A DNA stretch of 64,000 nucleotides from Bacilli bacterium (GCA_028702495.1 JAQVOS010000001.1:10383-74382), one strand, 5' to 3'. Positions 1,990-55,828 are shown, counted from the stretch's first letter. The notes: generated by a model from the sequence alone, not told the origin. Numbers and translations: made by a program.

Positions 1990-1993
1990 TTTG

Positions 1994-2007
1994 GTAACAT
2001 ATGTTAC
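1994..2007. promoter_or_regulatory. Second copy of palindrome GTAACATATGTTAC, immediately downstream of the -10 box (predicted to overlap the transcription start of the Crp/Fnr gene)
   Basis: Read directly; centre-to-centre about 75 bp from first copy. Confidence 0.5.
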
Positions 2008-2019
2008 AAGGGGGATTTT

Positions 2020-10782: not shown

Positions 10783-10784
10783 TC

Positions 10785-12146
10785 CTATTCCTCCCATCCA
10801 ATACTCTTTAACATCAAGATAAGACTTGCTTTGGGATTGACTTTCGCAAGCACACCGCATGAAGCCAAAATATAGTCTTGATCAATCCAAATGGTGGTTC
10901 CTTCTTCTGGTTTTAGGCTGCTCCCATCTTTTTGCATTAAATAGTTTTTAATAAGACTCATCCGATTAGGAAGTTGTGTGAGAGCCCCTCCTGTTGCAAC
11001 AAAGTTTTTAATTCTACGTAAATCTTTGCCTTCGATGAGATTGGAGTAATGCTTTCCTTGATAAGAGTAACGCATAAATCCTGCATGACGACGAATCCCT
11101 ACCTTTAGAGCCTCGTAAGTAAGACGCTCCGTCAAAGCAATTTGATTTTGATCGGGAATCGGCAAATAGTTTTCTAATAAACTATTTAATTCTTTTTGAT
11201 CGATATGAAGTGCTCGACAAAGGACATCTTCTCCAATGAGTTTTACCAAATGATATCGATTAATATATACTCCCAAATCCCCTTCAACCGTTCTTTTCGC
11301 AAAGGGTTCTGGTGTAATTGAAACATTGGTATCGGTATTTTTGGCTTCACCAATCGAAACGACATCTGTAGTAGCTCCTCCGATATCACAACAAATAATT
11401 TCTCCAATTTGATCGTGTAATAAGCGACAAGCTTCATACACAGCTCCTGGTGTCGGAATAATGATTCCATCTACCATTTGTCGGATGTGACTCATTCCTT
11501 TTGCTTCGGTAATATGTTCCTCAAAAATTCGATGAATGATTTGACGAACACCTTCAATATTAATTTCATCAATTTTAGGATATACATTCTCCCCAATCAA
11601 TAAATGGGATTCTTCTCCTGCCAATCGAAATGCTTCCCGAACGGCGATATGATTTACACAATTTCCCGCATAGAGAACAGGTATTCCTAATTTTAAATTT
11701 GCGATGCGTTTTGCGTTTTCTAAGGCTGTCTCATTTTCACCATAATCAACTCCACCCGCAATCATAATGATGTTTAATTGGAGCTTTTTGATTTCTTCGA
11801 GCTCCGAATCGTTCAATATCCCTGAGGTGACCATTTTAACATTTGCCCCAGCTCCTAAAGCAGCTTCCTTCGCAGCTTTGACGGTCATGTCATAGACAAG
11901 ACCATGAACACTCATTTTAAGTCCTCCAGCAGCAGAGGAAGAAGCTAGAACAAGACGTGCTTCTATTTTGTTTTTAGTTTTAATTTCATAATCTAGAATC
12001 GCATTTTGAAGCCCAATCCGAACATCTTCGATGGTTGTTGGGGCTATACCCTGACCTAAAAAAATTGGATTATGATCAAGATGATCAAAAACATTAACGG
12101 TTGTTGTCGTACTTCCAATTTCTGCAATCAAACAATCGACTTTCAT
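10785..12146 (-). CDS. MutL/GlmL-like protein (glutamate-mutase accessory/reactivase-like; actin/hexokinase-fold ATPase) of the ornithine aminomutase cluster
   Basis: 453 aa, ATGA overlap with oraE; position between oraE and orr matches the C. sticklandii cluster. Confidence 0.55.
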   Translation of the reverse strand: MKVDCLIAEIGSTTTTVNVFDHLDHNPIFLGQGIAPTTIEDVRIGLQNAILDYEIKTKNKIEARLVLASSSAAGGLKMSVHGLVYDMTVKAAKEAALGAGANVKMVTSGILNDSELEEIKKLQLNIIMIAGGVDYGENETALENAKRIANLKLGIPVLYAGNCVNHIAVREAFRLAGEESHLLIGENVYPKIDEINIEGVRQIIHRIFEEHITEAKGMSHIRQMVDGIIIPTPGAVYEACRLLHDQIGEIICCDIGGATTDVVSIGEAKNTDTNVSITPEPFAKRTVEGDLGVYINRYHLVKLIGEDVLCRALHIDQKELNSLLENYLPIPDQNQIALTERLTYEALKVGIRRHAGFMRYSYQGKHYSNLIEGKDLRRIKNFVATGGALTQLPNRMSLIKNYLMQKDGSSLKPEEGTTIWIDQDYILASCGVLAKVNPKASLILMLKSIGWEE

Positions 12147-14326: not shown

Positions 14327-14693
14327 GATGACCTCCAAAACTTTTGATAACTTTATCCCAACCTTCTCCATTGATAAGAGCAAGCCCCGCTTCGCGAATC
14401 GGTAGGGAGGCTAGTTGATGATATCGAAAAACAACATGACCGGCTCCCTTTCCCATCAGTTCATGAGCCATCACTTTTTCAACGAGGGCTTTGGCCTCAA
14501 GGGAGGAGAATCCCATTCGTAGTAAAACACTGCGTTCGAGAGAAGGACTGGTATGTGTTTTTGCAAGATCAACTAAGGGTTCTACTGCTTGATTGGCTAA
14601 GCACCAAAAAGTGGCCTTTAATTCTTCATCGGATAAAGAGGCCAGATGTTTACGTCTTGCCTCAAAATCATCGCTTCTAGCTATTATTTTCAT
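14319..14693 (-). CDS. oraS: D-ornithine 4,5-aminomutase subunit S
   Basis: 124-aa protein; ATG at 14693 overlaps ortB stop (ATGA); size/position as OraS. Confidence 0.65.
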   Translation of the reverse strand: MKIIARSDDFEARRKHLASLSDEELKATFWCLANQAVEPLVDLAKTHTSPSLERSVLLRMGFSSLEAKALVEKVMAHELMGKGAGHVVFRYHQLASLPIREAGLALINGEGWDKVIKSFGGHHE

Positions 14694-16099
14694 ACCTTCC
14701 ACCTCAATTCTTTTTCTTGTAATAGCGAGAAGAGTTCTACTTCGCTTACTTTTAATTCTTCTTGTAAATACACTAAATCATCGCTTGTTAAAACAATCTC
14801 TTTTGTCACATTCGCTCCTAAATATGAGAGTCGTACACGATGTAAATCTACATCTTGAACATGAATAAGACTTGGATGTTCTGGAAGAATGATAGACTGT
14901 CCTGGAACTTCTGTTCTAGGATTTCCAAATTCAAGTTTAATTCCTTGTTTTCTAGCGAATGATAACTGGGCTTGATGATGTTTTCCTGCACCCGTATATT
15001 CGGTTTCTTGAACGACGATTACTTGATCTTGACGCAGTTCTTGAGCCAAAGAGAAAGCACAAGCGAGTGAGACATTCCCTGCAGGACCTCGTTCAATCCC
15101 TTCTAAAAGGGCCAAGGTTTCTGTCATAAAGAACACTTCTCCTTGAGTCATCGTAACATAACGATCAATATAACGTAGGGGACGTGCAGCAGAACGTGGC
15201 ACATCACTTCGATCAGGTTGCATCATAAAAGGAAGACCAAAACCCGTGTGGCCTGTTGTAAAGGATTTTCGATTAAAATCATAGTCGCTTGCCATATGTA
15301 AGCCAACAAGATTGACACTAGCACCCACAATCTCGACAGGGTCTGTCGTTGCTCGTTTGATTCCACGTGCGGTTCCGGTTAGGTTTCCCCCTCCAGCATT
15401 GGTACATACAACCATATCGGGTGAACGCCCGATTTGCTTCATACAATCTTCGATAACTTCTATTCCTAAAGTTTCAATTCCTAGGATTCCATAGGGGGTG
15501 TATAAAGAAGCATTAAAATAACCAGTCTCTTCTAATAATTGTAAGAATACATAAAAAAGTTCGGGACCAACCGATAGCTGAACGACCTCAGCTCCATACG
15601 CTTCACATGCTCGTGCTTTTTCTATAATTTCTGGTTGACCAATGCCGCGAGAATCATAGCACTCCTGAACAATGATGCAGGGAAGATTTAGTTTAGCAGC
15701 TTGCGAAGCCACTGCTGCTCCATAGTTTCCACTTGTAGCAGCAATCACACCAGGATAACCAAGCCGTTTTGCATGGTAACAGGAGATGGCAGCACGTCTG
15801 GCTTTAAAACTTCCCGAGTCATTGAGGGCTTCATCTTTGATAAAGATTCTAGCACCTTTCCCAGGTTGACTACAACGTCTTGCTAAAGCGGTGATATTTT
15901 TTAGTTCTTTTAGGGGAGTTTTTCCAACTCCATGCTCTAATTGAATTTTTTTCACCATGTTAATCGGATATCCATGGTCCTTCATTAAGGATTCGTATTG
16001 AAATCCAATTTGAGATCTTTCATACTGAGAATAATCAATCCCAATAGCTTTTTTCATAATCTCGTTCTTACGAGCCATGACACGATCGTATTTATTCAT
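14690..16099 (-). CDS. ortB: 2-amino-4-ketopentanoate thiolase beta subunit (PLP-dependent, Trp-synthase-beta fold)
   Basis: 469 aa with PLP-fold motifs; follows ortA. Confidence 0.7.
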   Translation of the reverse strand: MNKYDRVMARKNEIMKKAIGIDYSQYERSQIGFQYESLMKDHGYPINMVKKIQLEHGVGKTPLKELKNITALARRCSQPGKGARIFIKDEALNDSGSFKARRAAISCYHAKRLGYPGVIAATSGNYGAAVASQAAKLNLPCIIVQECYDSRGIGQPEIIEKARACEAYGAEVVQLSVGPELFYVFLQLLEETGYFNASLYTPYGILGIETLGIEVIEDCMKQIGRSPDMVVCTNAGGGNLTGTARGIKRATTDPVEIVGASVNLVGLHMASDYDFNRKSFTTGHTGFGLPFMMQPDRSDVPRSAARPLRYIDRYVTMTQGEVFFMTETLALLEGIERGPAGNVSLACAFSLAQELRQDQVIVVQETEYTGAGKHHQAQLSFARKQGIKLEFGNPRTEVPGQSIILPEHPSLIHVQDVDLHRVRLSYLGANVTKEIVLTSDDLVYLQEELKVSEVELFSLLQEKELRWKV

Positions 16100-16379
16100 G
16101 AGAAGACCTCACAAGCGTTTCAATGCGTAAAAGTTCAGGAACAAATTCACCATAACTATGACGATATGTTGGATTGACTTCAATCAATTTACCTTCTTCT
16201 AAACGATGCGTTTTGGTTTTGATATGAACCCAATCAAACATCTCTGCATCTTCTAAAAGGGTTCCTTTGACCCACATTTTAAGAGGAGTCTTTTTCGTAT
16301 CTTCGGGTATATGAGAACTTCGCTCTTGAGGCTCTAAAACAATGCGCTCAATGAGAACCCAACTTCCTTTTTGAATCAT
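16092..16379 (-). CDS. ortA: 2-amino-4-ketopentanoate thiolase alpha subunit
   Basis: 95 aa from ATG at 16379 (MIQKGSW…), ATGA overlap with ord stop, GAGGAAAAG RBS. Confidence 0.6.
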   Translation of the reverse strand: MIQKGSWVLIERIVLEPQERSSHIPEDTKKTPLKMWVKGTLLEDAEMFDWVHIKTKTHRLEEGKLIEVNPTYRHSYGEFVPELLRIETLVRSSHE

Positions 16380-17419
16380 ATCTTTTCCTCCACAAGAGCT
16401 CGTACATCCCCACAAATGGCGCGAGGAACGGGAAGATCTAGCATCGTTTTTAAGCCTGGAGTCGCATTCAGGAGGAGAGGAATCATATTAACACAAATGG
16501 CAATCGTTCCCATGCCACCTTCCACTTCAGGACTAATCGACATTTTAATATTGGGACTCCCTGCTAGGGTGATATAGTCTCCGGTTGTGATACCTCCAAG
16601 ATGAGGTTCAATTTGTTGGGGGTGATGTAAATGAAAGAATGTTTTACCATCTTTCACCCCTTCAGCTTCCATATCAATTCCGCATACATGTCCTGCTTTC
16701 GCAAACCCATGTGGGGAGGTTCGATCCACATCGGTGATAATGGGTTTCATGGTTTGACTAACGACTACATCCTTTAATCCAAGACCCTCACTCATCATCG
16801 AAATCGACTCCCAAAAACCAATGTGACCAGAAATCTGTGTGCATTTGGCATCATATTCTTCGATTGACAAGCCTACTCCTTGTTCTTCCATCACCGCCTT
16901 GCCAAAAGGGGATAAAGAGTTCACACGGGATACCTCAATATTTTTCACATCACTCATGACTCCTGTTAAAAACAACACGAGTAAATCCATCATCATTCCC
17001 GGATTGACCCCTGTTCCGAGAATCCGAACATGATAAGCTTTTGCAAGTTCATCCATTTTTTTAGATAGCTCAGGGTTTGCTGCATAAGGATAAGCCATTT
17101 GTTCAGCCGTTGATATGACATTAATTCCATGTTTTACAAGCCACTCAATTTTAGGGTAAGCTTTCTCAGTAAAAGAATCTGTTGCAAGTAAACAAATATC
17201 AGCCCTTTCCCAATGGGGAATATCAGTCACTGAAGATGCAATCCGTGCATCCTCAGCATAATCACTTATTAATTCCTTGATGGATTTTCCAATGAGAGCA
17301 GGATTCATATCCACTGCTCCAAGAATTTGAAAACCCTGCTTATGGGCAATCATCTGGGCCATTCCTTTACCCATAGCTCCAAAGCCCCAAATCATCACTT
17401 TAATCTTTTCTTGTCTCAT
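16376..17419 (-). CDS. ord: 2,4-diaminopentanoate dehydrogenase (DapB-like NAD(P) oxidoreductase)
   Basis: N-terminal Rossmann motif IWGFGAMGKG; 347 aa; context between arcC and ortA. Confidence 0.7.
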   Translation of the reverse strand: MRQEKIKVMIWGFGAMGKGMAQMIAHKQGFQILGAVDMNPALIGKSIKELISDYAEDARIASSVTDIPHWERADICLLATDSFTEKAYPKIEWLVKHGINVISTAEQMAYPYAANPELSKKMDELAKAYHVRILGTGVNPGMMMDLLVLFLTGVMSDVKNIEVSRVNSLSPFGKAVMEEQGVGLSIEEYDAKCTQISGHIGFWESISMMSEGLGLKDVVVSQTMKPIITDVDRTSPHGFAKAGHVCGIDMEAEGVKDGKTFFHLHHPQQIEPHLGGITTGDYITLAGSPNIKMSISPEVEGGMGTIAICVNMIPLLLNATPGLKTMLDLPVPRAICGDVRALVEEKI

Positions 17420-18348
17420 ATATCCTCCTCAGTAATTATCGTTCCACATCTTCCTTTTAAAGCCTCGTTAGCTTCTTCAAGGGAAGTAATAATAGCCATG
17501 CGATGGGAATTTCCACGAACAAATTCAACGCTTGCTTCTACCTTAGGAAGCATACTTCCCTTCGCAAAATGTCCTTCTTCGATATAGCGAAGCGCCTCAC
17601 TCACTGATAAATGGCGAAGCGCACATTCCTTAGGTGTTCTATAATGAAGGACCACATAAGGAACGGTTGTTAAAATGAGTAAAATGTCAGCATCAATTCT
17701 GCGTGCTAAAAAACTGCTCACATAATCCTTATCAATGACAGCATCGACCCCAACCCATTCATTGCTTTTCAAGACAACAGGAATGCCTCCACCCCCACAA
17801 CAAATAAGGGTGACCTTTTCTTTTAACAATGCTGTAATCACGTCTTCTTCAAGAATCCCAATCGGAAGCGGTGAAGGGACAACTCTTCGATATCCGCGCT
17901 TTGCATCTTCAATAAATGTATAACCTCGCGCGCGTTCTAAATTACGCGCTTCTTCTTCGGTATAAAAACCACCAATGGGCTTTGTTGGAGTGAGAAAATG
18001 AGGGTCGTTTTCATCAACTTCCACTTGAGTTAAGAGGGTTGCCACGGAATGCTCTTCTTTTAAACAATTTTTTAAAGCTTTTTGTAAATGATACCCAATA
18101 TACCCCTGACTCATTGCTCCACATTCAGGAAAAGGCATCGTGAATAGTTTATCATTCACACGACTAGACTCGGAAAAGGCAAGATGAATGGCACCCACTT
18201 GGGGACCATTTCCATGCGTGATCACGAGTTCATGACCCACAAGAATCATTTCTTTTAAAATCGCAACTGTTTTATAAACATTCTTACTTTGCTCCTCTGG
18301 GGTTTGCCCTAAAGCATTGCCCCCTAGGGCAACCACAATGCGACTCAT
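17416..18348 (-). CDS. arcC: Carbamate kinase
   Basis: N-terminal [10 protein letters not shown] motif of amino-acid-kinase family; 310 aa. Confidence 0.85.
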
Positions 18349-19346
18349 ACCTCACCACCAAGAGATGCTACCATCACCGCTTTAATTGTATGTAGACGAT
18401 TCTCAGCTTCATCAAATACCACAGATTGGCTAGATTCAAAGACTTCATCAGTCACTTCCAAACCAACGAGTCCATATTCTTCGAAAACTTCTTTGCCCAT
18501 CGTTGTTTCAAGATTGTGAAAACTAGGTAAACAATGTAAGAAAATCGCATTTTTATCAGCAAGTTGCATTACATCTTTCCTCACTTGATAGGGTTTAAGG
18601 AGAGCGATTCGCTCGCCCCATACGCTATGATCTTCGCCCATTGAAACCCAGACATCCGTGGTAATAACATCTACTCCTTTTACCCCTATAGCGATATCTT
18701 CTGTAAAGAGAAGATGAGCTCCCGTTTCATGTGCTATTTCTCTTGCCTTCTCGATGAGAGTTTCTTCTGGCCATAACACGCGAGGTGCAACAAGACGAAA
18801 ATCAAGTCCCATTTTAGCAGCTCCAATTAAGAGTGAGTTTCCCATGTTATAACGAGCATCGCCCAAGTAAGCCATTTTAATTCCTTTTAAGGCTCCTTTA
18901 TGTTCTAGGATGGTGAGGAAATCAGCGAGTATTTGGGTGGGATGATAACGATCAGTTAATCCATTCCATACCGGAACCCCTGAATACTTAGCCAATATTT
19001 CTACAGATTCTTGATGATATCCTCGAAATTCAATACCATCAAACATCCGACCTAAAACACGAGCAGTATCTTTGATGCTTTCTTTCTTTCCCATTTGAGA
19101 CCCACTAGGGCCCAGATAAGTCGCATGCATTCCTTGATCATACGCTGCCACTTCGAAAGCACAACGTGTTCTCGTCGAATCTTTCTCAAAAATAAGGGCA
19201 ATATTTTTCCCCACACAACGCTTCTTTTCAATCCCTTGTTGTTTTTCGAATTTCAGTTGTTGGGCTAGGTTTAGTAGATATAATATCTCTTCTGGTGCAT
19301 AATCAAGTAGTGTTAGTAAACTCCTGTTTTTTAGATTCATAGTCAT
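18345..19346 (-). CDS. arcB: Ornithine carbamoyltransferase (catabolic)
   Basis: STRTR carbamoyl-phosphate motif and HCLP ornithine-binding motif; 333 aa. Confidence 0.9.
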
Positions 19347-19355
19347 TTCCTCAAT

Positions 19356-20585
19356 CTATTCAATGTCATCACGGATAAAGGGCATACTCATACAACGAGG
19401 TCCACCTCTTCCGCGTGATAATTCACTCGATGGAATGGGATAAATCTTGATTCCATGTTCTTCAAGTAGATGGTTGGTGATGTGATTTCGCTCATACACA
19501 ATCACTTCTCCTGGAGCAATCGCCATCGTGTTAACTCCATCATTCCATTGCTCACGATCTGATGCAATGGCATCGCCACCCCCACAAGGGATAAGCGTCA
19601 CAGGTCGCTTTAAGTAATGCGATAAGATCGCGTCTAGCTTTTTCTCAATTGGTTTGACAAATAGTTTCAAATCCCGTTTTGGATCTTTCATTAATTCGAA
19701 AACGCGCATCGACTGATTGATATCACTATGGATGGTGAACTTGTCATAATCAACCTGGGTAAAAACTGTATCTAGGTGCATAAAAGCTCTTGTTTTAGGA
19801 ATGTCAAAGGCGAGTACTTTTTCAAAAGTTGTATTGTTGAAATAGAGAAGTTGTTTGGCAAGACGTTCAATTGAAGCAGGGTGTGTTCTTTGGGAGACTC
19901 CCACAGCTACAATTTTATCGTTTAGCACCATGATGTCTCCTCCTTCAATCGAAGTCGAAGCATCTCTTTTATAATAAATCGAAGGCATTGGATTTCCATA
20001 ATGAGGATGATACCTGAAAATATATTCTCCAAAAATACTCTCACGACTACGACTAGAGGCATACATTTTCCCGAGCATAACTCCTTTACCAATAATGGTA
20101 AAGGGATCTCTCGTAAAATATAGATTAGGCATAGGATCTGTGACAAATGGATAATCACGAATATAATCGGATAACGTTCTTTTAGTGAAATTGGGGATAT
20201 CCACTTTTCTAATTCCAGCCATCATTTTCGCAATCATATCACGGGTTGGAAGTGCCTCTAAATAAGTGCGCAAAATGGAACTCAATGTTTCACTGGTCAC
20301 ATTCGATTCTTTAATAAATTGATTAATAAAGGCTTCTTTCACATTCAGCCCTGAATCAAGGGTCTCTTCAATTAAATCCACCAAATATAGAACTTCAATT
20401 CCTTTGCTTTGGTAAAAGCAAGATAAGGCTTGATGTTCTTCTTTGGCTCGTTCTAACCATGGGATGTCATCGAACAATAATTGTTCTAACATCTTGGGCG
20501 TTAAATGTTCTAATTCTTGTCCTGGTTCATGCAATAGGACACATTTTAAGCGACCAATCTCCGAATTAATTCGTAAAGAATCCAT
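19356..20585 (-). CDS. arcA: Arginine deiminase
   Basis: 409 aa; C-terminal GGGPRCMSMP catalytic-Cys region typical of ADI. Confidence 0.85.
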   Translation of the reverse strand: MDSLRINSEIGRLKCVLLHEPGQELEHLTPKMLEQLLFDDIPWLERAKEEHQALSCFYQSKGIEVLYLVDLIEETLDSGLNVKEAFINQFIKESNVTSETLSSILRTYLEALPTRDMIAKMMAGIRKVDIPNFTKRTLSDYIRDYPFVTDPMPNLYFTRDPFTIIGKGVMLGKMYASSRSRESIFGEYIFRYHPHYGNPMPSIYYKRDASTSIEGGDIMVLNDKIVAVGVSQRTHPASIERLAKQLLYFNNTTFEKVLAFDIPKTRAFMHLDTVFTQVDYDKFTIHSDINQSMRVFELMKDPKRDLKLFVKPIEKKLDAILSHYLKRPVTLIPCGGGDAIASDREQWNDGVNTMAIAPGEVIVYERNHITNHLLEEHGIKIYPIPSSELSRGRGGPRCMSMPFIRDDIE

Positions 20586-37570: not shown

Positions 37571-37601
37571 ATATCAAAAAAGATGTGATTTCTCACATCT
37601 T
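37571..37601 (-). terminator. Rho-independent terminator downstream of lipoprotein gene (AAGATGTGA/TCACATCTT stem)
   Basis: 9-bp stem, loop TTTC, A-run on plus strand 37571-37580 (= U-run on minus). Confidence 0.6.
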
Positions 37602-37610
37602 CCTGTTTAG

Positions 37611-38324
37611 TTATCTTGTAAAATATCCCATAGACCATATTTCATAAACCATTGAATCCGCTGTATAGAAACGATTGTTGAAGGCTTCGTTCAAGGTGAA
37701 ATTACCATGTTTTTCATTCGACTGATATCGAATACTAAAGACGGCTGCCTTGTGGTTGCTAGGAAATGGTTGACTATAAGTGATGGTGATTAGCCCTTCT
37801 ACAACATTGCTAACAAATGAACCCGTCAATCCTTCTGCTTTTACAACTTCTACATTGGTTACTTCATCGGGATTAAACTGATATTGAAGTTGAAAACTAG
37901 CAAAAGATCCATCTCCTGTGGTGCAATAAATAGCTTCGTATGTTCCTTCGTTTTCCTCAACCACATTATAGAGCACAAGATTAGGTAAATGATTATTAAC
38001 TGCTGTTGGCGCAGTTAAAGTGATTTCTGCAAGTAGTTTTCTCCCTTCACAAGTGATTTCGATATAATGTTCACCTGTTGTTAATAAGAGATCAAAATCA
38101 TAATCTGAGAGCATGTCTCTCGTTAGTGGAACTTCCTTGGTTGTGTTATCACTATATTCAATGGTTAATTTGATATCTTCTAACAAAAAACCATCGAATG
38201 AATATTCATATACTCCATTATTTTCGCTAAATATGAGACCAGTCATAGTGACTTCTGGAGGTTTTTTACAGGCAGTAAGCATAAGTAAGGCACTAAGCAG
38301 AATAAGAACTATTAGTTTTTTCAT
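37611..38324 (-). CDS. Hypothetical lipoprotein
   Basis: Signal peptide/lipobox LTAC; 13-nt gap to upstream large surface protein gene. Confidence 0.5.
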   Translation of the reverse strand: MKKLIVLILLSALLMLTACKKPPEVTMTGLIFSENNGVYEYSFDGFLLEDIKLTIEYSDNTTKEVPLTRDMLSDYDFDLLLTTGEHYIEITCEGRKLLAEITLTAPTAVNNHLPNLVLYNVVEENEGTYEAIYCTTGDGSFASFQLQYQFNPDEVTNVEVVKAEGLTGSFVSNVVEGLITITYSQPFPSNHKAAVFSIRYQSNEKHGNFTLNEAFNNRFYTADSMVYEIWSMGYFTR

Positions 38325-38336
38325 ACTGATTTCCTC

Positions 38337-41300
38337 CTATCTTACTTCCACAGTAATGGTTGTTACTTTATTAATAAGTTCAGTTAATGTATGCCCAATG
38401 AGAATGAGATTTCCTGATCCGGTTGTAAAGCGAATGATGTGATCGGTTGCGGTTCCAAACGTATTGTTGGCAATGGTAGCACTTCCATTGGTTCCCATTT
38501 CTAAATTACAATTTCCAAAAATACTACCAGTTGTTACATTGTTACTGATAAGAAGATTCTTAAGGGTTGTTCTGAAGCGGATGCTTTCAGCTGCCTGACC
38601 TATATCACGATAACGATTACTGATAACAGAATTTGTACTAATAGATGTAAATTTATTATAGGAGATGACAAAGTTCTCAAGGGTTGTGTCTGCAATACTA
38701 TTCCCGAGTCGAATGATTCCAGTGTGACTTGCAAGTCCACGTGAAGTAATAATGTTGTAACTGATTTCAACATTCGATATATTAGCTCCACCTGTCACAT
38801 AAACCAAGCCTGTGTAGTTTCCAGATTGCGAGGTGTCATACTTAAATTCCAATCCACGTATGGTAACATCGCTTGCAGTAATACCAACTGTCCCTGTAAG
38901 GATGGCTTCTTCGCTTCTCGCAAGTGTACCATTAGGATCAATATCATCATTTAATCCAACAAGGTTGATGGCTTTATTAATCATGCAGTCCCCATTGTAC
39001 GTTCCAGGAAGAATGGTAATGGTTCCCCCGGCTACAGTTGCATCAATGGCTGCTTGAATGGTGGAATAAATGGTTCCACCAATTCGATAATCAATGCCAT
39101 CAATGGTGATTGACGTGGCTTGAGTATCACTATAAACAAAGACATTTCCTTCTAAAGTTGTTAAATCATGAATAAGTATTTCAAAGGTATCTATGATTGA
39201 TGTATCAATTTTAGAAGTCGCTGTAACAATGAGTGTTCCAGCCTTTTTACAAGTAATAACACCCTCGTCAATATCCGCTAACTCTAAGTCATTGACGCTC
39301 CAGGTTACTTCTTGTAGTGTTTGAATAGGGTCAAGTTTGACGGTTAAATTGACTATTTTCCCAATTTGAGATGTATTCTCACCTTGAATCGTAAGTTTAG
39401 TTGGTAATGCTTCAACAATCATGGTAACAGTTAAATCACTTGTGATATAACTTAAGTCCTTATCCCACTTTACAAATTGAAATCCTGGAAGGATCCCAAT
39501 CGTTGGTGGCTCAACCGATGATCCTGATAGAACATCTTCTTCAGCGAGTGTGATTCCGTCATAGTCAACAAATGTGACAGTCACTTTCTTTTTGGTAATG
39601 GTTTCATAGTATTCACTGAAATACAAATGAACATAGGTAGCATCCTTCATATCTACCACTCCATCTTGAGTGATATCAGCAAGGCGGAGGGCACCACTTT
39701 CAAGGAGTGTAATCCCTGTAACATGTTTTTGAATCGCTTCAACATCACTAACATTCACGACTCCATCGAAATTGACATCTCCAAAAGTTTCATATTGGGC
39801 GTAATACCTTGAAGATGGGCTATTATTTGAATCTCTTATGTCAATGATACTTTCATTCGTTACCCCTGTTAACACACATTCAAGATCGCTTGCTGATACT
39901 TCTTGGAACGGAACCCCATCAACATATACCCATACGTTGAGTGCAAGGTCCGAACCACTGTAATCCCAGGTTACTTTGTAAGTTCCCACATCGTTTTCTA
40001 CTCTTACATTGGCGATTAAATCAAATTTTTCGGATGATATTGGAATGGGGATCGTGACTGTCGTTGCATCCTTATAATAGATTTTAACACTCACAGCGGA
40101 CATTCCGCTTATATTAGATAATCCAAAACTAGTTTGATTTTTCTTCTTCAAAGGATTGGTTGCAAGAATGTTATTCTCTTCATCTAAATATTCAATACGA
40201 TAAACATAACCCACTCCTACTTTTGAACAACTGATCATTCCAGCATCATCAAGAAGAGTACTATGATGAAACGCGAAACTTTTTTCAAATGCTTCTTTAT
40301 CTAAGTTTTCCATTGGAATAACAGAACGTTTCGCAGGAATCTCTGTCGTATCCAAAATGGTGCCCGTTCTGTCAAGAAGTCTTGTGGTGACCTTCTGTCC
40401 ATTCACTGTGACAAGAATGGCTCCGACTGTGCTTCCACCCTCAGTAAACCGATAAGCAATTTTATCGGTATTATAGGAGAGGGTAGCATCCATCGCTTGC
40501 CCTCGCTCGTTATCAGCTGATGGGGCTTGCATATAGACCGTTCCTTTAGTCGAATCCGTGGAAACGACACCTTGATATAATGGATAGCTTCTCACATAAA
40601 TATGATTATTCCCAGCCATCGCTAAATCAACACCATACTGATCAAAGAGTGCTTTCCAACGATCATATCCTGATGACTTGGAAGCTCCATTTATTCCATT
40701 AAACCATTCATAATGTTGGGCAACAAAAATGTATTGGGAGGGATTACTCTCAACCACTTGACAGAACCACTCTTGCGCTTTAATCACTTCAGCGGGGTCG
40801 GACAAGCTTTCCGTATTAAAATTGATGAATAATACATTATTATATTTGAAGTAGTAACATACTCCTTCTTCGCCATTATATCCATTTAAAGGAAAGTTAT
40901 TGACTGATTTAAAAAATTGGTTGCTGTTTTTGGAGTTGGTTCGATCCATATTATCATGGTTGCCATTCACACTAGCCCATAGGTAATTTCCGTAATGGTC
41001 ATTCGTATACATATCTTTCCAGAACGAATAACTACCACCCCAAGCAGCCACATCACCAGTAGAGTACATCATATCAACACTAGGGTCAATTCCAAGAGCT
41101 GTATCAATCATCCCCATCGCATTGATGAGTCGCCCTGGCAATGGTAAATAAGCATGCCAATCGCTTATCCATACGAAACTGAATTCTTCAGCTCCTGCCG
41201 TTTTAAAATAATGAGTACTACTCATCGTAGAAGAACCGACTTGATACATATATTCGGTATCACTTTCCAAATCGGTTAAATTAGCGGTACATGTCTGAAT

Positions 41301-41615
41301 ATTTGGATTTTCAGTAACATCTGCTCCGCTCGCAGTTTTAGATGACATTCCATCAAAGACGCTACTTGCTTTACAGACACCTGGAGAGGTCGTCGCTTCT
41401 GCCCATTCGGTATCACTTTTCTCGGTGTAGATAATTTGACCGCCACTGATTCCCTGATCCATATGCCAACTGATATTCATCTCAGTCGATGCATCTTCAC
41501 CGGGATTTGTAATGATGGTATAAGCATCAGATTCAATAGCGTTGAGTTTGAATGGATTAACAATGAGTAAAAGTGTTAAGGCCAAAAACAAAATTAAAAC
41601 CTTTTTCATATGCAT
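38337..41615 (-). CDS. Large secreted multi-domain protein: purple-acid-phosphatase-like metallophosphoesterase, Listeria-Bacteroides repeat, type-I dockerin-like segment, Ig-like (Big_2-like) domain, C-terminal parallel beta-helix
   Basis: Signal peptide MHMKKVLILFLALTLLLIV; GNHDNMD metallophos motif; dockerin-like DVNFDGVVNVSDVEAIQKHV…ADITQDGVVDMKDATYVHLY; PbH1-like NxxxN repeats in the C-terminus. Confidence 0.6.
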   Translation of the reverse strand: MHMKKVLILFLALTLLLIVNPFKLNAIESDAYTIITNPGEDASTEMNISWHMDQGISGGQIIYTEKSDTEWAEATTSPGVCKASSVFDGMSSKTASGADVTENPNIQTCTANLTDLESDTEYMYQVGSSTMSSTHYFKTAGAEEFSFVWISDWHAYLPLPGRLINAMGMIDTALGIDPSVDMMYSTGDVAAWGGSYSFWKDMYTNDHYGNYLWASVNGNHDNMDRTNSKNSNQFFKSVNNFPLNGYNGEEGVCYYFKYNNVLFINFNTESLSDPAEVIKAQEWFCQVVESNPSQYIFVAQHYEWFNGINGASKSSGYDRWKALFDQYGVDLAMAGNNHIYVRSYPLYQGVVSTDSTKGTVYMQAPSADNERGQAMDATLSYNTDKIAYRFTEGGSTVGAILVTVNGQKVTTRLLDRTGTILDTTEIPAKRSVIPMENLDKEAFEKSFAFHHSTLLDDAGMISCSKVGVGYVYRIEYLDEENNILATNPLKKKNQTSFGLSNISGMSAVSVKIYYKDATTVTIPIPISSEKFDLIANVRVENDVGTYKVTWDYSGSDLALNVWVYVDGVPFQEVSASDLECVLTGVTNESIIDIRDSNNSPSSRYYAQYETFGDVNFDGVVNVSDVEAIQKHVTGITLLESGALRLADITQDGVVDMKDATYVHLYFSEYYETITKKKVTVTFVDYDGITLAEEDVLSGSSVEPPTIGILPGFQFVKWDKDLSYITSDLTVTMIVEALPTKLTIQGENTSQIGKIVNLTVKLDPIQTLQEVTWSVNDLELADIDEGVITCKKAGTLIVTATSKIDTSIIDTFEILIHDLTTLEGNVFVYSDTQATSITIDGIDYRIGGTIYSTIQAAIDATVAGGTITILPGTYNGDCMINKAINLVGLNDDIDPNGTLARSEEAILTGTVGITASDVTIRGLEFKYDTSQSGNYTGLVYVTGGANISNVEISYNIITSRGLASHTGIIRLGNSIADTTLENFVISYNKFTSISTNSVISNRYRDIGQAAESIRFRTTLKNLLISNNVTTGSIFGNCNLEMGTNGSATIANNTFGTATDHIIRFTTGSGNLILIGHTLTELINKVTTITVEVR

Positions 41616-41723
41616 TCATCCTTTCTAAATACACACCATTATAACACGGGCGTATTTACATGACAATACCTTACCAAAAAATTGGTTTAATTATTTGTTT
41701 ATTTTCTTGTTTCATTCAATTTC

Positions 41724-46212: not shown

Positions 46213-46233
46213 AAGTCACGTTGAGGTATGATT

Positions 46234-47277
46234 ATGAAAAAATTATTATGGATGATACTAGCTATTCTTTTAGTAGGATGTACTGATACAACGTCTATTA
46301 CCATCTCATTTCAATCAAATGGGGGCGAACAATTAGTGCCCATAATTGCCCTTCCCAATGAAGTTATTTCTCTTCCCACACCCGTAAAAATTGGACATAC
46401 TTTTGATGGGTGGCAACTTGGAAGTGACATTTTCACGACAGAAGCTTCCTTTGCCTCAGATACCACTTTGTATGCACGATGGACAAAAAACACATACATC
46501 GTAACTTTTATAGATTATAACAGCGATATACTGTCCACCCAATCCGTACGTTACCAAGAAAATGCAACACCACCAACTAGCCCTAATCGTAGTGGATATA
46601 CGTTTATCGGCTGGGATGGTTCCTTTAAGAACATCCTCACGAATACAACACTTCAAGCCATCTATCAAGAAGCAACCGAAGGCCTCATTTTTGAAGAACG
46701 TGATGAAGGATATATCGTGACAAGTTACGAAGGAAGTGCGACTTCGATTGCAATTCCAAGCATTTACAACGGACGAGATGTTGTTGCCATTGGGGTCGAT
46801 GCTTTCTTAGAAAATAAGACCCTTGTATCGGTTCATTTACCAGAGTCTTTGAAGGATATTGGCAATCGTGCTTTTTATGAATGCACCCTCTTATCCACCA
46901 TCAACATCCCATCATCCGTACTTCGCATTGGTCGTGCAGCCTTCTATAACTGTGAATCTTTGATTTCCATCACCATTCCTTCTCCTTTAGTGGATGAGAG
47001 CGCCTTCCATTATTGCTCAAATTTGAAAAATATTACCCTCCTCAATACCGTCACTACCCTTGCGAATTCTTGCTTTTATGGATGCAGTGATCTCGTTTCA
47101 ATTTATATTCCCAGCAGTGTTACTTCAATCGATAATCATCTCTTTAGTTGGTGCCCCTCACTTGTAAATGTGTATACCGATGCAGAAAATGTTAGTAACC
47201 TCCAAGCCATGAGAGATGAGATTGAACTTGTTTACCTTAATGCTAATTTTCACATTTTAGCCCTTCCACCTCAATAA
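46234..47277 (+). CDS. Surface lipoprotein with Listeria-Bacteroides (flg_new) repeats and BspA-type leucine-rich repeats
   Basis: Lipobox LLVGCTD; GYTFIGWDG repeat signature; repeated …AFYxCxxLxSIxIPSSV… LRR_5-like units; second ATG chosen for RBS spacing. Confidence 0.6.
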   Translation: MKKLLWMILAILLVGCTDTTSITISFQSNGGEQLVPIIALPNEVISLPTPVKIGHTFDGWQLGSDIFTTEASFASDTTLYARWTKNTYIVTFIDYNSDILSTQSVRYQENATPPTSPNRSGYTFIGWDGSFKNILTNTTLQAIYQEATEGLIFEERDEGYIVTSYEGSATSIAIPSIYNGRDVVAIGVDAFLENKTLVSVHLPESLKDIGNRAFYECTLLSTINIPSSVLRIGRAAFYNCESLISITIPSPLVDESAFHYCSNLKNITLLNTVTTLANSCFYGCSDLVSIYIPSSVTSIDNHLFSWCPSLVNVYTDAENVSNLQAMRDEIELVYLNANFHILALPPQ

Positions 47278-49860: not shown

Positions 49861-50388
49861 TTATTGATATTGTTGTTGCTCTTGTTGTTCAAGACCTAAA
49901 TGTTCGGTTAAACGAGCATAAATGGCATCATATCCAGCTGCTTGAAAGGTCGCTTTAGTTGCTCCTTCGAGGGTTGTGCCAATACTAATTAAAGCCGCTG
50001 TTTCGCCAATGTATAACATATCGAAATCTTCAACGCCATCCACCCAGAATGTTCCACTGTCTCCCTGACCAGGTCCCCACCCTTTACGAGCTTCGCTATA
50101 GGTCCGATAAATACCTTCATTGGCCGGATCTGATAAGTTGACCGCATAAATTGTTGATTTCCCTTCGTATTCTTTGGGTTCATCGCGTAAGAGTTCCAAA
50201 TAAGTAATGACGAGGGGTTTTACACTTTCGCAATCAGGACAATCATCGCGATAGAACACGACAAAATAGGTCCCTCCTTGCGTAAAAATGTCTTGACCGG
50301 ATAAAAATGTAACTTTTGTTTCTTTTTTACAACCACCTAAGGTGAGGGCTAGTATCGAAACGAGGACTAGCATAATGAGTTTTTTCAT
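49861..50388 (-). CDS. Thioredoxin-fold lipoprotein with CPDC motif (bacteriocin-transport-accessory-protein-like)
   Basis: Lipobox LTLGGC; …VVFYRDDCPDCESVKP… thioredoxin-like motif; Q/E-rich C-terminal tail. Confidence 0.5.
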   Translation of the reverse strand: MKKLIMLVLVSILALTLGGCKKETKVTFLSGQDIFTQGGTYFVVFYRDDCPDCESVKPLVITYLELLRDEPKEYEGKSTIYAVNLSDPANEGIYRTYSEARKGWGPGQGDSGTFWVDGVEDFDMLYIGETAALISIGTTLEGATKATFQAAGYDAIYARLTEHLGLEQQEQQQYQ

Positions 50389-54338: not shown

Positions 54339-54941
54339 TTATTCCTTAGGCGATTCAATTCGGGATTCCCATTCTAAATAGTATGCAAGGATATCTTCAA
54401 AAGTTCCTTGGTTATGGTGCTGTAATTGAAAAGCATCAAGATATTCTTTGAAGAGAATATTATAGTAGTTTTTTCGTTCATCAATTGATTGATGGTTTAT
54501 CAAGACTTCATAGTTTTCTGAAAAAATTATGATATTAAACGCTAAAGAAGCCGCCTGTTTTTTAAGACTAGTTCCTTTTTTGGCGAGTTCTTCATTCAGA
54601 GCAAATTCATTATCCCACTCTTTTTTCACAATCAAAAATGTTTTTCGTGTTGTGAAATACCGCCAAATCATGAGTCCTATACAAAGAAGGTAAAAACAAA
54701 AAAATAGATCAACAAATATATTCCCCAAATTTTGATACAAGAATAAGAAGGCAAGTAAGAGACCAATACCTGCATACAATGTTTGATGAAGATGATCATC
54801 ACACTTTTTCTTCGCCTCGCGATATCGCCCTTCAAATTGGAGGGAAGTGTCTTCTGTCCTTTTTGCAAGTTCTTTTGTCGTAAGGTCGAGTTCATGCATG
54901 GTATTCAAATACCCATTTCTAGCTCGTAGAAGGATTCTCAT
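54339..54941 (-). CDS. Hypothetical membrane protein (two central TM helices)
   Basis: 200 aa; ATGA overlap with upstream zinc-ribbon membrane protein gene. Confidence 0.4.
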   Translation of the reverse strand: MRILLRARNGYLNTMHELDLTTKELAKRTEDTSLQFEGRYREAKKKCDDHLHQTLYAGIGLLLAFLFLYQNLGNIFVDLFFCFYLLCIGLMIWRYFTTRKTFLIVKKEWDNEFALNEELAKKGTSLKKQAASLAFNIIIFSENYEVLINHQSIDERKNYYNILFKEYLDAFQLQHHNQGTFEDILAYYLEWESRIESPKE

Positions 54942-55774
54942 ATGATAAAGCCCTCCTGAATATACATGATGAAATCATATCCTGACGTGAGAATGCGTAA
55001 GCAGTGTTTGGCAAAGTTAGCTGATTCTGGCAAGAGTACAACATAAGTGGTAAGGAGTAAGATGATAAAACCGACGATGAGAATAAAGGGGAACTTCACC
55101 TTTTTATAAAGTAAAAACGAAGTCGATACAGCTAGTAAGTAAGAAGGAATTATGAAGATAAAAACGAACCCAAAATAGCGGACTTCTAAGCCAAAACTAA
55201 AGAGTCCAATTAAAAAGGTAAGAATAAAAAGCACCCCAGCTAATATCCCAAAAATCACGGCATTTCGCCTATAAACAATGGGACGAACCTCATCGCTAAA
55301 TACCATAGGAATCGCAAGACTAGAGAATAGTTCTTCATCTTTTACACGTTCAGAATTTGAATAACTATCTTCCCTAAATAAAGTATGAATGATTTTCAAA
55401 TAAGGCTCTTCATCCATTTTTTGACGTATCAAAAAACGCTCCAAGGCTCCCACTTTTTTTGCTTTCGTGTGATGAATGATATGAATTGCAACTTCGTGAA
55501 GAAGATTAGGAGTCGTATCAAGAATCAAATCATAACGATTGGGATCTCCTTGGGCATAAAACAAATAGTATTTTACAACATCATTTTTTGGGTTTTCATT
55601 TAGGTATTCGCGTGCATATTCTTGAATTATTTCAAGATTATCAAGTCTTACACCACACATCATCATGCGATACGCATAACTGAGGGTATCACCCTCACTC
55701 ACGCGATTTCCACAGTGACAACAAACTTCAGTTATCGTCAAGCGATTACAAAAAGGACATAGTTTTTCTTCCAT
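54938..55774 (-). CDS. Hypothetical membrane protein with N-terminal zinc-ribbon (CPFC…CCHC) and C-terminal 4-TM region
   Basis: Start at MEEKLCPFCN (GGGGG RBS); the ORF-track N-terminal extension is the translation of an upstream promoter. Confidence 0.45.
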   Translation of the reverse strand: MEEKLCPFCNRLTITEVCCHCGNRVSEGDTLSYAYRMMMCGVRLDNLEIIQEYAREYLNENPKNDVVKYYLFYAQGDPNRYDLILDTTPNLLHEVAIHIIHHTKAKKVGALERFLIRQKMDEEPYLKIIHTLFREDSYSNSERVKDEELFSSLAIPMVFSDEVRPIVYRRNAVIFGILAGVLFILTFLIGLFSFGLEVRYFGFVFIFIIPSYLLAVSTSFLLYKKVKFPFILIVGFIILLLTTYVVLLPESANFAKHCLRILTSGYDFIMYIQEGFII

Positions 55775-55799
55775 AGAAAGAACCCCCAATGATGTTATT

Positions 55800-55828
55800 A
55801 TTATAACACCAAACGGGGGTTCTTTCAA
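55800..55828 (-). promoter_or_regulatory. Consensus sigma-A promoter TTGAAA-17-TATAAT (minus strand) between ABC pair and zinc-ribbon membrane protein gene
   Basis: Minus-strand TTGAAA at 55828-55823 and TATAAT at 55805-55800. Confidence 0.55.

Follow-up and report, generated by a model that had tools for sequence, protein, structure and literature searches.

A secreted, dockerin-bearing phosphoesterase and a lipoprotein with a divergent cohesin are encoded as an adjacent gene pair in uncultured Bacilli

The two-gene locus

On the minus strand of the window (the whole 64-kb stretch of DNA that was analysed), a gene for a predicted secreted phosphoesterase with a purple acid phosphatase (PAP) fold and a dockerin (38337..41615) is followed by the gene for a 237-aa lipoprotein with a divergent cohesin (37611..38324). 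All features described below lie on this strand. The enzyme gene was identified via its ORF, Pfam matches and an AF2 model (pLDDT 85.2), and its 1092-aa ORF at 38337-41615 is exactly the one that an earlier sequence-only reading had claimed. Translation yields 1092 aa from the ATG at 41615 and 1090 aa from the ATG at 41609. The second of these (MKKV...) appears to be the likelier true start because the Shine–Dalgarno (SD) sequence AAAGGA lies 9 nt 5′ of it but just 3 nt 5′ of ATG 41615; the relatives P0001-P0003 are called as 1090-aa genes. Secretion had been claimed as well, and the sequence supports it: residues 1–25 (41541..41615; MHMKK, a hydrophobic core and ...KLNA↓IE) read as a Sec signal peptide, judged by eye from the sequence and the AF2 model. 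The model shows a helix at residues 3–19, followed by low confidence at 23–25, and no lipobox was found when this signal peptide was read.

The second gene (MDD4211813.1, PHY42_00215) was identified via its ORF, an exact-sequence look-up and an AF2 model; its product is annotated in GenBank as a hypothetical protein. Sequence reading indicates a lipoprotein signal peptide (38268..38324) with the lipobox L-T-A-C19, which conforms to the pattern [LVI][ASTVI][GAS]C (MKKLIVLILLSALLM-LTAC19; acylation is predicted). The lipobox Cys is invariant in 13 lipoprotein sequences and at least 90% conserved in 32. This lipobox confirms the downstream lipoprotein gene that had been proposed, although the gap between the genes is 12 nt and not 13 nt.

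At the junction (38325..38339) the TAG stop of the enzyme gene is overlapped by the SD sequence AGGAGGA, with a 12-nt spacer (...AGA TAG GAGGAAATCAGT ATG). By its sequence the junction is coupled and bicistronic, gene 2 being predicted to be translationally coupled to gene 1. A putative promoter, TTGTCA-17 nt-TATAAT with an extended −10 element (TGT), lies upstream of the enzyme gene (41638..41666); it is recognized by its consensus match alone, which covers 11 of 12 positions plus the TG. Ten nucleotides past the lipoprotein stop we read a terminator-like hairpin, AAGATGTGA-GAAA-TCACATCTT, followed by a T-run (37576..37601); the palindrome was reported on the plus strand, and its T tail on the minus strand was identified by eye. 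Together, these signals delimit a predicted two-gene operon from 41666 to 37576 (minus strand), whose genes would be co-transcribed.

Modules of the enzyme

The enzyme runs from the signal peptide through a PAP-fold metallophosphoesterase, two beta-sandwiches, a dockerin, a Listeria-Bacteroides-like repeat and a Big_2-like domain to a beta-helix. The inventory of the sequence-only reading (PAP-like metallophosphoesterase, type I dockerin, Big_2-like domain and beta-helix) is supported by these results, and the HMM domain scan that it had suggested placed Pur_ac_phosph_N, Metallophos and Dockerin_1 above their gathering cut-offs. The PAP N-terminal, FN3-like domain (PF16656) spans residues 35–139 (41199..41513) with 45.3 bits against a Pfam cut-off of 30, and Metallophos matches residues 146–339 with 45.3 bits against 21.5. 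The binuclear metallophosphoesterase catalytic domain as a whole covers residues 146–430 (40326..41180) and carries D152xH154, GD188, GN219H220D221, H301 and GN336xH338; the GNHDNMD motif noted before was located at residues 218–224.

The N-terminal PAP domain followed by a metallophosphoesterase fold identifies the fold as that of PAPs. In PAPs the invariant metal ligands D, D, Y, N, H, H and H are held by the motifs DxG / GDxxY / GNH(D/E) / VxxH / GHxH, and the tyrosine of GDxxY gives true PAPs their purple colour. This set of seven ligands is incomplete in the family studied here, which has D152xH154, GD188xxA191, GN219H220D221, H301 and GN336xH338 when mapped by motif position, not by residue-level structural superposition. 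Ala191 is found in 117 and Asn336 in 115 of the 121 aligned sequences, and overall the substitutions that deviate from PAPs are kept in 115–120 of them. Plant-type PAPs (kidney-bean PAP, 6ofd/4dhl; wheat phytase, 6git; lupin PPD1, 3zk4) show ∼15% identity to the window enzyme and differ at three points: their motif I is DxG whereas the enzyme has DxH, the Tyr of GDxxY is replaced by Ala191, and the first His of GHxH by Asn336. As judged from these motifs, the enzyme has a PAP fold with a predicted generic binuclear site and is missing the tyrosine that serves true PAPs as chromophore.

Two beta-sandwich spacer domains without an assigned family follow at residues 440–606 (39798..40298) according to the AF2 secondary structure; a Pfam scan of residues 430–610, ahead of the dockerin, was blank even at E ≤ 10. 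The dockerin itself (residues 612–666; 39618..39782) comprises two Ca-binding loops and three helices. Dockerin_1 (PF00404) matches residues 612–665 at E 1.1e-9, its 38.8 bits lying above the 22.9-bit cut-off, and a regex search found both 12-residue Ca loops complete, DVNFDGVVNVSD at 613 and DITQDGVVDMKD at 647, which bears out the type I dockerin-like double Ca-binding repeat that had been claimed. The two segments each combine an EF-hand-like 12-residue Ca2+ loop (D1, N/D/T3, D5, D12) with a helix, and the AF2 model places helices at residues 622–632, 640–646 and 656–666. D613, D624, D647 and D658 are invariant across 35 family sequences, and both loops as well as helix residues are conserved across the enzyme family. 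A profile of this family matched ∼25 solved dockerins in the PDB (best E 5.8e-10). On the strength of these sequence matches we take the module to be a genuine dockerin. Its internal, not C-terminal, placement is atypical. For many dockerins outside cellulosomes, no partner is known to date.

The Listeria-Bacteroides repeat had been placed before the dockerin. We found none there; a candidate Listeria-Bacteroides-repeat/MucBP-like beta domain lies after the dockerin at residues 677–736 (39408..39587), where the matches are weak and below the Pfam cut-offs: Flg_new (PF09479) at ∼679–723 with 16.8 bits against 27 (E 0.0074) and MucBP with 19.5 bits against 23 (E 0.0018). Its family consensus contains a GYxFxGWDxD...ITSDL motif. 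The Big_2-like Ig domain (PF02368; residues 740–815, 39171..39398) is borderline: searched in isolation, the segment scored 22.0 bits where the cut-off is 22.8, and precomputed PF02368 matches are recorded for the homologs P0003 and P0005. The C-terminus (residues 819–1092; 38340..39161) is predicted to be a right-handed parallel beta-helix of the pectin-lyase-like type, with the conserved blocks VLPGTY, HTGIIRLGN, NSxISNRxRD and NLE(M/L)G. The beta-helix is confined to a small sub-clade (the window, P0001-P0004, P0006 and L003), and in dozens of other relatives that bear the gene pair the enzyme stops after the repeat that follows the dockerin. The conserved core therefore consists of phosphoesterase, dockerin and cohesin lipoprotein.

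The divergent cohesin and the gene pair in relatives

Behind the lipobox, the lipoprotein carries a Big_3-like Ig stalk domain (residues ∼26–105; 38010..38249), for which the family profile matches the Ig-like domain of 2l7y with E 0.02. Big_3 matches were obtained in 4 of 13 family members; in some relatives the stalk is duplicated or Flg_new repeats stand in its place. For the remainder (residues ∼113–237; 37614..37988), the AF2 model, which is moderately confident (mean pLDDT 78.7, pTM 0.57), predicts the nine-stranded flattened beta-sandwich (jelly-roll) of the cohesin fold. The Pfam Cohesin model (PF00963) gave no match to the window lipoprotein at E ≤ 1, and among 13 lipoprotein relatives a single one reached E 0.0097. 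With Pfam and NCBIfam together, a weak Ig_2 match and signal-peptide noise were all that the window lipoprotein returned, and a profile of the whole lipoprotein searched against the PDB matched the Ig-like stalk alone and no cohesin.

Just two routes revealed the cohesin, structure prediction and a domain-only profile (A5). Searched against 1.84 billion sequences, this profile matched multi-copy proteins with library-wide E values of 7.7e-9 to 7e-5. PF00963 is present in 7 of 10 tested matches (41.6–174 bits), and in P0184, P0188 and P0190 the Pfam cohesin spans the residues that A5 matched. Significant sequence homology to accepted cohesins was found in this way; against PDB sequences, the top two matches of the domain-only profile were cohesins as well (E 0.014 and 0.078). 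We conclude from the model and the profile that the downstream lipoprotein carries a divergent cohesin that Pfam does not detect. The profile can serve as a search tool that finds further candidates overlooked by standard annotation, and a concrete, testable role is given to a conserved family that is labelled hypothetical in GenBank and cannot be classified by Pfam.

In each of the 14 independent loci with readable flanks, the gene directly after that of the dockerin enzyme encodes a cohesin lipoprotein. These loci (the window, L001-L006, L015, L019, L029, L031, L041, L042/43 and L044) come from uncultured gut or rumen Bacilli/Acholeplasma-like MAGs. This adjacency is preserved although the flanking genes vary from locus to locus, and at L047 a lipoprotein-sized match to the cohesin profile also follows a dockerin PAP. 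Relatives were found when the genome collection was scanned with the family alignment as query, whereas a single protein as query found none.

Other relatives lack the dockerin. At L024, L025 and L032-L035 no cohesin lipoprotein lies downstream, and the enzyme homologs end in a Cys, a hydrophobic helix and a basic tail. The similarity of these tails to MYXO-CTERM, JDVT-CTERM and PGAP-CTERM is weak and stays under the cut-off in each case; by their composition alone the tails look like anchors. No such hydrophobic C-terminal anchor occurs among the listed dockerin-bearing proteins (P0001-P0059). Many Bacteroidota homologs of the enzyme carry the T9SS sorting domain PF18962. The catalytic core is orthologous (27–54% identity) in the Bacteroidota and the Acholeplasmatales-like MAG homologs, but the former have the T9SS C-terminal sorting domain and the latter Cys, TM and basic tail, i.e. 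a covalent or intrinsic anchor where the window pair would have a non-covalent cohesin–dockerin bridge. On this sequence pattern, surface anchors appear to swap among relatives of the enzyme, between dockerin plus lipoprotein, C-terminal anchor and T9SS.

Surface display and its alternatives

We consider it probable that the two-gene operon displays the enzyme on the cell surface via a private cohesin–dockerin pair. The best reading of the sequence is a non-cellulosomal 1:1 pair, with the phosphoesterase carried on a lipid-anchored stalk through predicted binding. Both proteins would be exported, and the lipoprotein, with its lipid-modified Cys19, its Ig-like stalk and its one cohesin, would be acylated and retained in the outer leaflet of the cytoplasmic membrane. 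Ca2+ binding would fold the dockerin, which would then dock onto the cohesin, so that the phosphoesterase, bound through its central part, stays close above the membrane surface. Extracellular phosphoesters could be hydrolysed there, releasing phosphate and dephosphorylated products beside the transporters of the cell, and the pair may in this way have a nutrient-scavenging role. Teichoic acid, eDNA and phosphorylated glycans had been suggested by the sequence-only reading as possible targets.

The dockerin might instead be a Ca2+-stabilised linker or ligand-binding module and the lipoprotein a functionally linked accessory that does not dock, such as an adhesin or substrate-binding protein whose cohesin-like sandwich has another ligand. 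Peer et al. reportedly described in 2009 that non-cellulosomal dockerin- and cohesin-like modules are widespread, most of them so far without a demonstrated partner, and the remoteness of the sequence match between lipoprotein and cohesins is consistent with such an accessory. A mirror-tree comparison is compatible with it as well: pairwise divergence of dockerin and cohesin correlated with a rho of 0.40 compared with 0.75 for catalytic domain and cohesin, so no special dockerin–cohesin correlation was seen. However, this alternative hardly accounts for the finding that precisely these two kinds of module strictly occur together, nor for the C-terminal membrane anchors that replace dockerin and lipoprotein in relatives, and the family-wide conservation of the Ca loops and helix residues speaks against it. 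We regard this explanation as unlikely.

The dockerin could also plug into a scaffoldin encoded elsewhere as cellulosome-type cargo, the downstream lipoprotein being unrelated. The module is a canonical type I dockerin, and the distant relatives L026 and L027 from Eubacteriales combine a PAP catalytic domain and a C-terminal dockerin without an adjacent lipoprotein. As 64 kb of the genome were open to inspection, further cohesins or dockerins may be encoded outside this stretch. Within the window, an unfiltered HMM search of the six-frame translation found exactly one dockerin and one cohesin-like domain, and Pfam on ∼50 ORFs, regex and the six-frame HMM search together revealed no further ones. 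The cohesin search that the sequence-only reading had called for led to the lipoprotein encoded 12 nt downstream and predicted to be co-transcribed. That reading was right to infer, in general terms, a cohesin from the dockerin, but the scaffold it expected elsewhere is replaced by the adjacent lipoprotein as the cohesin carrier, a gene that it had noted without linking it to the dockerin. The suggestion of cellulosomal cargo fared worse, as neither the window nor the flanking regions of the related paired loci yielded a CAZyme, CBM, GH or multi-cohesin scaffoldin; the sole dockerins in those flanks are the PAP enzymes. If a cellulosome is defined as a scaffoldin with at least two cohesins plus dockerin-fused glycoside hydrolases (PMC13487519), the 64-kb window contains none. 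The conservation of the enzyme–lipoprotein pair in 14/14 loci likewise argues against a remote scaffoldin, and so does the host: the uncultured Bacilli/Acholeplasma-like lineage is no known cellulosome producer, and a rumen survey detected neither cohesins nor dockerins in Tenericutes (PMC6487960, Table 2). Taken together, a scaffoldin encoded elsewhere seems decidedly improbable.

That the pair works but serves the beta-helix as main effector (a polysaccharide lyase/hydrolase or adhesin), with the phosphoesterase as auxiliary, can be set aside as highly implausible, since the beta-helix is limited to its small sub-clade and shows conserved blocks alone, with no assignable catalytic residues.

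Surface display through a private pair is not a new kind of biology; it extends the known cohesin–dockerin principle to a predicted membrane-lipid anchor instead of SLH/sortase, to a phosphoesterase cargo and to uncultured Acholeplasma-like gut Bacilli. The closest known anchors are OlpA and OlpC of Clostridium (Acetivibrio) thermocellum, single-cohesin surface proteins that bind type I dockerins of enzymes directly (3ul4, 4dh2). SLH domains fasten both to the wall, and a review names these domains as the general means of cellulosome anchoring (PMC5817068), whereas the lipoprotein would be held by its N-terminal lipid. Other differences of the window pair are its cargo (a phosphoesterase in place of a CAZyme), the internal position of the dockerin, the dedicated adjacent genes and a cohesin so divergent that the Pfam model misses it. 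ClcC-ClcD of Cellulosilyticum lentocellum, which stands between ‘cellulosome’ and ‘non-cellulosomal module’, is likewise a reduced 1:1 cohesin–dockerin system with a catalytic dockerin protein (PMC13487519). However, it acts on cellulose, with a GH5 enzyme and a cohesin protein that bears a CBM, while the window pair has no carbohydrate-active core, is predicted to be lipid-anchored and comes from Acholeplasma-like or uncultured Bacilli. Further non-cellulosomal cohesins, those of Archaeoglobus fulgidus (2xdh), Clostridium perfringens glycosidase (2vo8, 2w1n, 2o4e) and the Ruminococcus bromii amylosome (7uvg, 7urp), are none of them described as lipoprotein-anchored and dedicated to a phosphoesterase. 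In our literature search, whose incomplete coverage makes it weak evidence, we found no paper that joins cohesin/dockerin with a lipobox, Acholeplasma/Mollicutes-type taxa or PAP. With the genes for cohesin and dockerin adjacent and in a 1:1 ratio, cognate partners can be read from the locus without screening. This recommends the pair as a clean natural system in which to study specificity and as a compact, orthogonal tether for displaying proteins on surfaces.

More tentatively, lipoprotein-anchored cohesins invisible to Pfam might constitute an unrecognised display system of Acholeplasma-like/uncultured gut Bacilli in which a membrane lipid replaces the wall anchor, a possibility that we hold with some doubt. 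Some members of the Acholeplasma-like lineage have no cell wall for SLH or sortase anchors. If this broader proposal is true, the phosphoesterase pair would be the founding member, open to direct testing, of a larger group of such tethers, in a lineage previously thought to be without cohesin–dockerin modules. Within the 64-kb window we saw neither lgt nor lspA, no peptidoglycan genes and no RNA families or tRNAs. Related loci lie in MAGs labelled Acholeplasma or Acholeplasmataceae, and the L044 locus carries Peptidase_M23 and SpoIIID genes.

Modules and active site of the enzyme

The open reading frame at 38337..41615 (-) is present as the sequence-only reading had described it, with a length of 1092 aa, and both major modules claimed for it pass the curated Pfam cut-offs: a PAP-like part (Pur_ac_phosph_N at residues 35–139, Metallophos at 146–339) and Dockerin_1 at residues 612–665 (38.8 bits against a cut-off of 22.9, E 1.1e-9). 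The dockerin bears two complete calcium loops of 12 residues each (DVNFDGVVNVSD and DITQDGVVDMKD), and the profile of the enzyme family matches ∼25 solved dockerin structures (best E 5.8e-10). An AlphaFold2 model based on an alignment of 35 sequences (mean pLDDT 85.2) displays a signal peptide (1–25), an FN3-like PAP N-domain (30–140), a catalytic domain (145–430), two beta-sandwich domains (440–606), a three-helix dockerin (612–666), a small beta domain (677–736), an Ig-like domain (740–815) and a beta-helix (819–1092); the beta-helix contains the invariant polar blocks VLPGTY, HTGIIRLGN, NSxISNRxRD and NLE(M/L)G. Some details of the initial description had to be corrected. Resemblance to a Listeria-Bacteroides repeat was found, albeit below threshold, but it lies after the dockerin and not before it; for residues 430–610 on the N-terminal side, Pfam gave no match even at E<=10. 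The Big_2-like module is borderline (22.0 versus 22.8 bits), with Big_2 on record for the homologous proteins P0003 and P0005. The spacer to the lipoprotein gene measures 12 nt instead of 13 nt.

The frame opens with two in-frame ATGs (MHMKK..., 41607..41615 (-)). Since the Shine-Dalgarno sequence AAAGGA is separated by 3 nt from the first ATG and by 9 nt from the second, translation probably starts at ATG 41609 and yields a product of 1090 aa, in agreement with the gene calls of close relatives (1090 aa). The exact 1092-aa sequence was absent from the protein collection searched.

A large-database search returned the family mostly as proteins of ∼710–750 aa composed of PAP_N, Metallophos and an internal dockerin; the long C-terminal extension of Big_2 and beta-helix is carried by only a few members (P0001–P0004, P0006 and, among the genomes, the one at locus L003). 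Among species-representative genomes, the MAGs that encode a dockerin-bearing member are labelled Bacilli, Acholeplasmataceae or Acholeplasma sp. and originate from rabbit, goat rumen and comparable samples; homologs lacking the dockerin are found in Bacteroidota, Verrucomicrobiota and others. Canonical purple acid phosphatases are characterized by the motifs DxG, GDxxY, GNH(D/E), VxxH and GHxH. In contrast, 121 aligned sequences of this family display D152xH154, GD188xxA191, GN219H220D221, H301 and GN336xH338: the first motif is a generic DxH, and from these differences it follows that the family lacks both the chromophoric tyrosine and one of the histidine ligands. A true purple acid phosphatase was rejected on these grounds; judged by its motifs, the enzyme is a PAP-fold binuclear metallophosphoesterase.

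A divergent cohesin in the downstream lipoprotein

The next gene (37611..38324 (-)) encodes a 237-aa lipoprotein identical to MDD4211813.1 (PHY42_00215), annotated in GenBank as "hypothetical protein". Its N-terminus MKKLIVLILLSALLMLTAC constitutes a lipobox. Its cysteine is shared without exception by 13 sequences, and across 32 its conservation is at least 90%. Comparison with Pfam and NCBIfam gave nothing meaningful. The C-terminal half looked cohesin-like on visual inspection, which prompted further tests. With a profile of this domain the best two matches among PDB sequences were cohesins, 2xdh (E 0.014) and 4uyp (E 0.078), both aligned in register; the two matches are weak but concordant. 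A domain-only profile (A5) run against 1.84 billion representatives gave 51 matches at E<=1e-3: ∼30 are of lipoprotein size and the remainder are long proteins with several tandem stretches each. Ten long proteins (E 7.7e-9 to 7e-5 in the A5 search) were scanned with Pfam, and seven contain PF00963 Cohesin above cut-off (41.6–174 bits) overlapping the A5-matched stretch, for example at 167–240 against 163–254 in P0184, 566–628 against 545–627 in P0188 and 316–381 against 290–386 in P0190. Because A5 matches coincide with PF00963 domains, the homology extends to the sequence level; the lipoprotein domain is homologous to cohesins, significantly so by sequence and fold. The N-terminal domain is Big_3-like. 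Since it is duplicated or swapped for Flg_new repeats in some relatives, this region fits a stalk of variable length.

In P0188 and P0190, Pfam cohesin repeats occur together with a C-terminal T9SS sorting domain (Por_Secre_tail), and P0188 contains BACON domains in addition. Both proteins presumably carry their cohesins in a non-cellulosomal setting and are anchored via type IX secretion, a system characteristic of Bacteroidota. Another protein, P0203 (L048:5001-7502, 833 aa), holds cohesin-like and dockerin modules within a single polypeptide: a match to the divergent-cohesin profile at residues 60–173 as well as Pfam Dockerin_1 and Big_2. This suggests that divergent cohesins of this type are built into further architectures; an unannotated 288-aa gene precedes it with a 9-nt gap.

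Gene pairing and alternative anchors

Enzyme and lipoprotein genes show an operon layout, with signals that are consensus matches: a near-consensus promoter-like site TTGTCA-17-TGTTATAAT at 41666..41638 (-), a Shine-Dalgarno sequence of the lipoprotein gene (AGGAGGA) overlapping the TAG stop of the enzyme gene, and a hairpin of 9 bp with a subsequent T-run at 37601..37576 (-), 10 nt past the lipoprotein stop. The mnmG gene has promoter-like sites of its own. Using HMMs built here, we found the lipoprotein gene directly downstream of the dockerin enzyme in every locus with both flanks readable (the window, L001–L006, L015, L019, L029 and L031). A reverse search from three lipoprotein homologs placed the enzyme directly upstream in L041, L042/43 and L044, bringing the independent paired loci to 14; in L047 a lipoprotein-sized match to the cohesin profile follows a 1087-aa PAP-dockerin protein. 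As the flanking genes vary between loci, the adjacency is selected and not inherited synteny. L031 (CAZFAM010000014.1) carries the full pair under the MAG label 'uncultured Bacteroidales', whereas all other pair-bearing MAGs of the genome scan are labelled Bacilli or Acholeplasma(taceae); its label may reflect a binning or labelling error, or transfer.

Within 828 kb of loci, other dockerins were found only in Eubacteriales PAP-like proteins and neighbouring ORFs (L026, L027). These are MAG proteins of ∼525–534 aa with the dockerin at the extreme C-terminus (L026:10001-11590, L027:122-1726 and L027:10007-11584, two of them in one locus), the first and last with PAP-family matches. Since no cohesin lipoprotein adjoins any of them, they look like conventional dockerin cargo.

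Dockerin-less enzyme homologs from MAGs labelled Acholeplasmatales, Mollicutes, Bacilli, Bacillales and "Coprobacillus" have no cohesin lipoprotein downstream. Their C-terminus instead consists of a conserved Cys, a hydrophobic helix and finally an Arg/Lys tail, e.g. ...KKGCGAGAVQMVWTLVTTLGLVFIFRRRKF or GCGAGAVQMVW...FRRRKF (L024:9938-12607, L025:8306-10525, L032:5769-8291, L033:10004-12394, L034:10007-12511 and L035:9908-12445). Their similarity to MYXO-CTERM, JDVT-CTERM and PGAP-CTERM is weak and in each case below cut-off; these C-termini may represent a sorting or lipidation signal of Acholeplasmatales-like Bacilli that has yet to be described. Many Bacteroidota homologs bear a T9SS C-terminal sorting domain, and none of the dockerin-bearing proteins among P0001–P0059 has a hydrophobic C-terminus. 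Because dockerin, Cys-helix-basic tail and T9SS domain alternate among homologs, we infer that three interchangeable devices would retain the enzyme at the surface. The dockerin and cohesin-lipoprotein pair stands in the place of an anchor, which is the strongest indirect argument for a tether.

A putative tether and its genomic setting

We consider it likely that the cohesin lipoprotein holds the dockerin enzyme. Both proteins would be exported by Sec; the lipoprotein would be acylated at Cys19 and stay in the membrane, and the dockerin would take up Ca2+ and dock onto the cohesin. The enzyme would then sit above the membrane, attached through its central part; in this sub-clade the phosphoesterase would lie to one side of the attachment point and the beta-helix to the other. 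It could cleave extracellular phosphoesters near the cell's transporters. Module identities, pairing, operon layout and alternative anchors are read directly from the genes; binding, lipidation, localisation and physiological role are what we infer from them. It is possible that one or both modules are non-docking, and a mirror-tree comparison of dockerin and cohesin was uninformative. The sequence-only reading had concluded that a dockerin implies a cohesin, on a scaffold elsewhere in the genome. Its premise holds, and its observations stand with minor corrections; its interpretation is supported in part. A distant scaffoldin is possible, the inspected sequence being 64 kb, but is unnecessary given the adjacent cohesin; an unfiltered search of the window's six-frame translation gave a single dockerin and a single cohesin-like domain. 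A glycan-centred role of the beta-helix would be limited to the small sub-clade possessing it.

The tether would resemble OlpA and OlpC, which serve C. thermocellum as surface anchors with one cohesin each, and ClcC-ClcD, a minimal pair described recently (PMC13487519). It differs from these in its predicted lipid anchor instead of SLH, its phosphoesterase instead of CAZyme cargo, its internal instead of C-terminal dockerin and its host lineage. Cellulosomes are generally anchored via SLH domains (PMC5817068), and Tenericutes yielded neither cohesins nor dockerins in a metagenome survey of the rumen (PMC6487960, Table 2). Judged by the window and the flanks of the paired loci, we rejected a cellulosome as the identity of this system, which belongs to the loosely defined non-cellulosomal cohesin-dockerin modules. 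Our literature search, of incomplete coverage, found no description of any lipoprotein cohesin or any dockerin-bearing PAP-like enzyme. Most non-cellulosomal modules reportedly lack an assigned function (Peer et al. 2009). More speculatively, and rather doubtfully, Acholeplasma-like gut Bacilli, of which some are wall-less, could use lipid-anchored, Pfam-invisible cohesins as a general display system. Related MAG labels include Acholeplasma, and one related locus contains an M23 peptidase and spoIIID. In these Bacilli orders peptidoglycan was lost on several independent occasions (PMC10868615).

Of eight proteins from the window that were looked up, six are identical to GenBank entries (range MDD4211801–MDD4211825). 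The pair is flanked by housekeeping genes downstream (mnmG, rsmG, parA) and a divergent M3 oligoendopeptidase upstream, with ABC transporters, mfd and an arginine-deiminase/ornithine-fermentation cluster farther away; the window contains no tRNAs or Rfam matches. By Pfam domains the contiguous cluster (9724..20585 (-)) comprises, all on the (-) strand, arginine deiminase (19356–20585), ornithine carbamoyltransferase (18345–19346), amino-acid (carbamate) kinase (17416–18348), 2,4-diaminopentanoate dehydrogenase (16376–17419), a PLP enzyme (14690–16099), B12-dependent ornithine/lysine aminomutase (12143–14383, plus a small ORF 14319–14702), a MutL-like protein (10785–12146) and an alanine-racemase-fold protein (9724–10860), which fits an amino-acid metabolism that yields ATP, as is typical of reduced Bacilli/Mollicutes-like organisms. 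Several ORFs of 175–296 aa (49861..50388 (-), 54339..55828 (-) and 7944..8816 (-)) match no Pfam family; the first shares with the lipoprotein profile only a signal-peptide-like N-terminus (E 0.0013, residues 1–86). The 349-aa product of 46228..47277 (+) contains leucine-rich repeats of the BspA type (LRR_5, E 5e-51) as well as Listeria-Bacteroides repeats (Flg_new, E 2.5e-17) and is probably a further surface or adhesion protein. A cNMP-binding-domain protein (1978..2637 (+)) and a 541-aa EAL-domain protein (6046..7671 (-), E 5e-69, c-di-GMP phosphodiesterase domain) are located in this otherwise reduced-looking genome segment.
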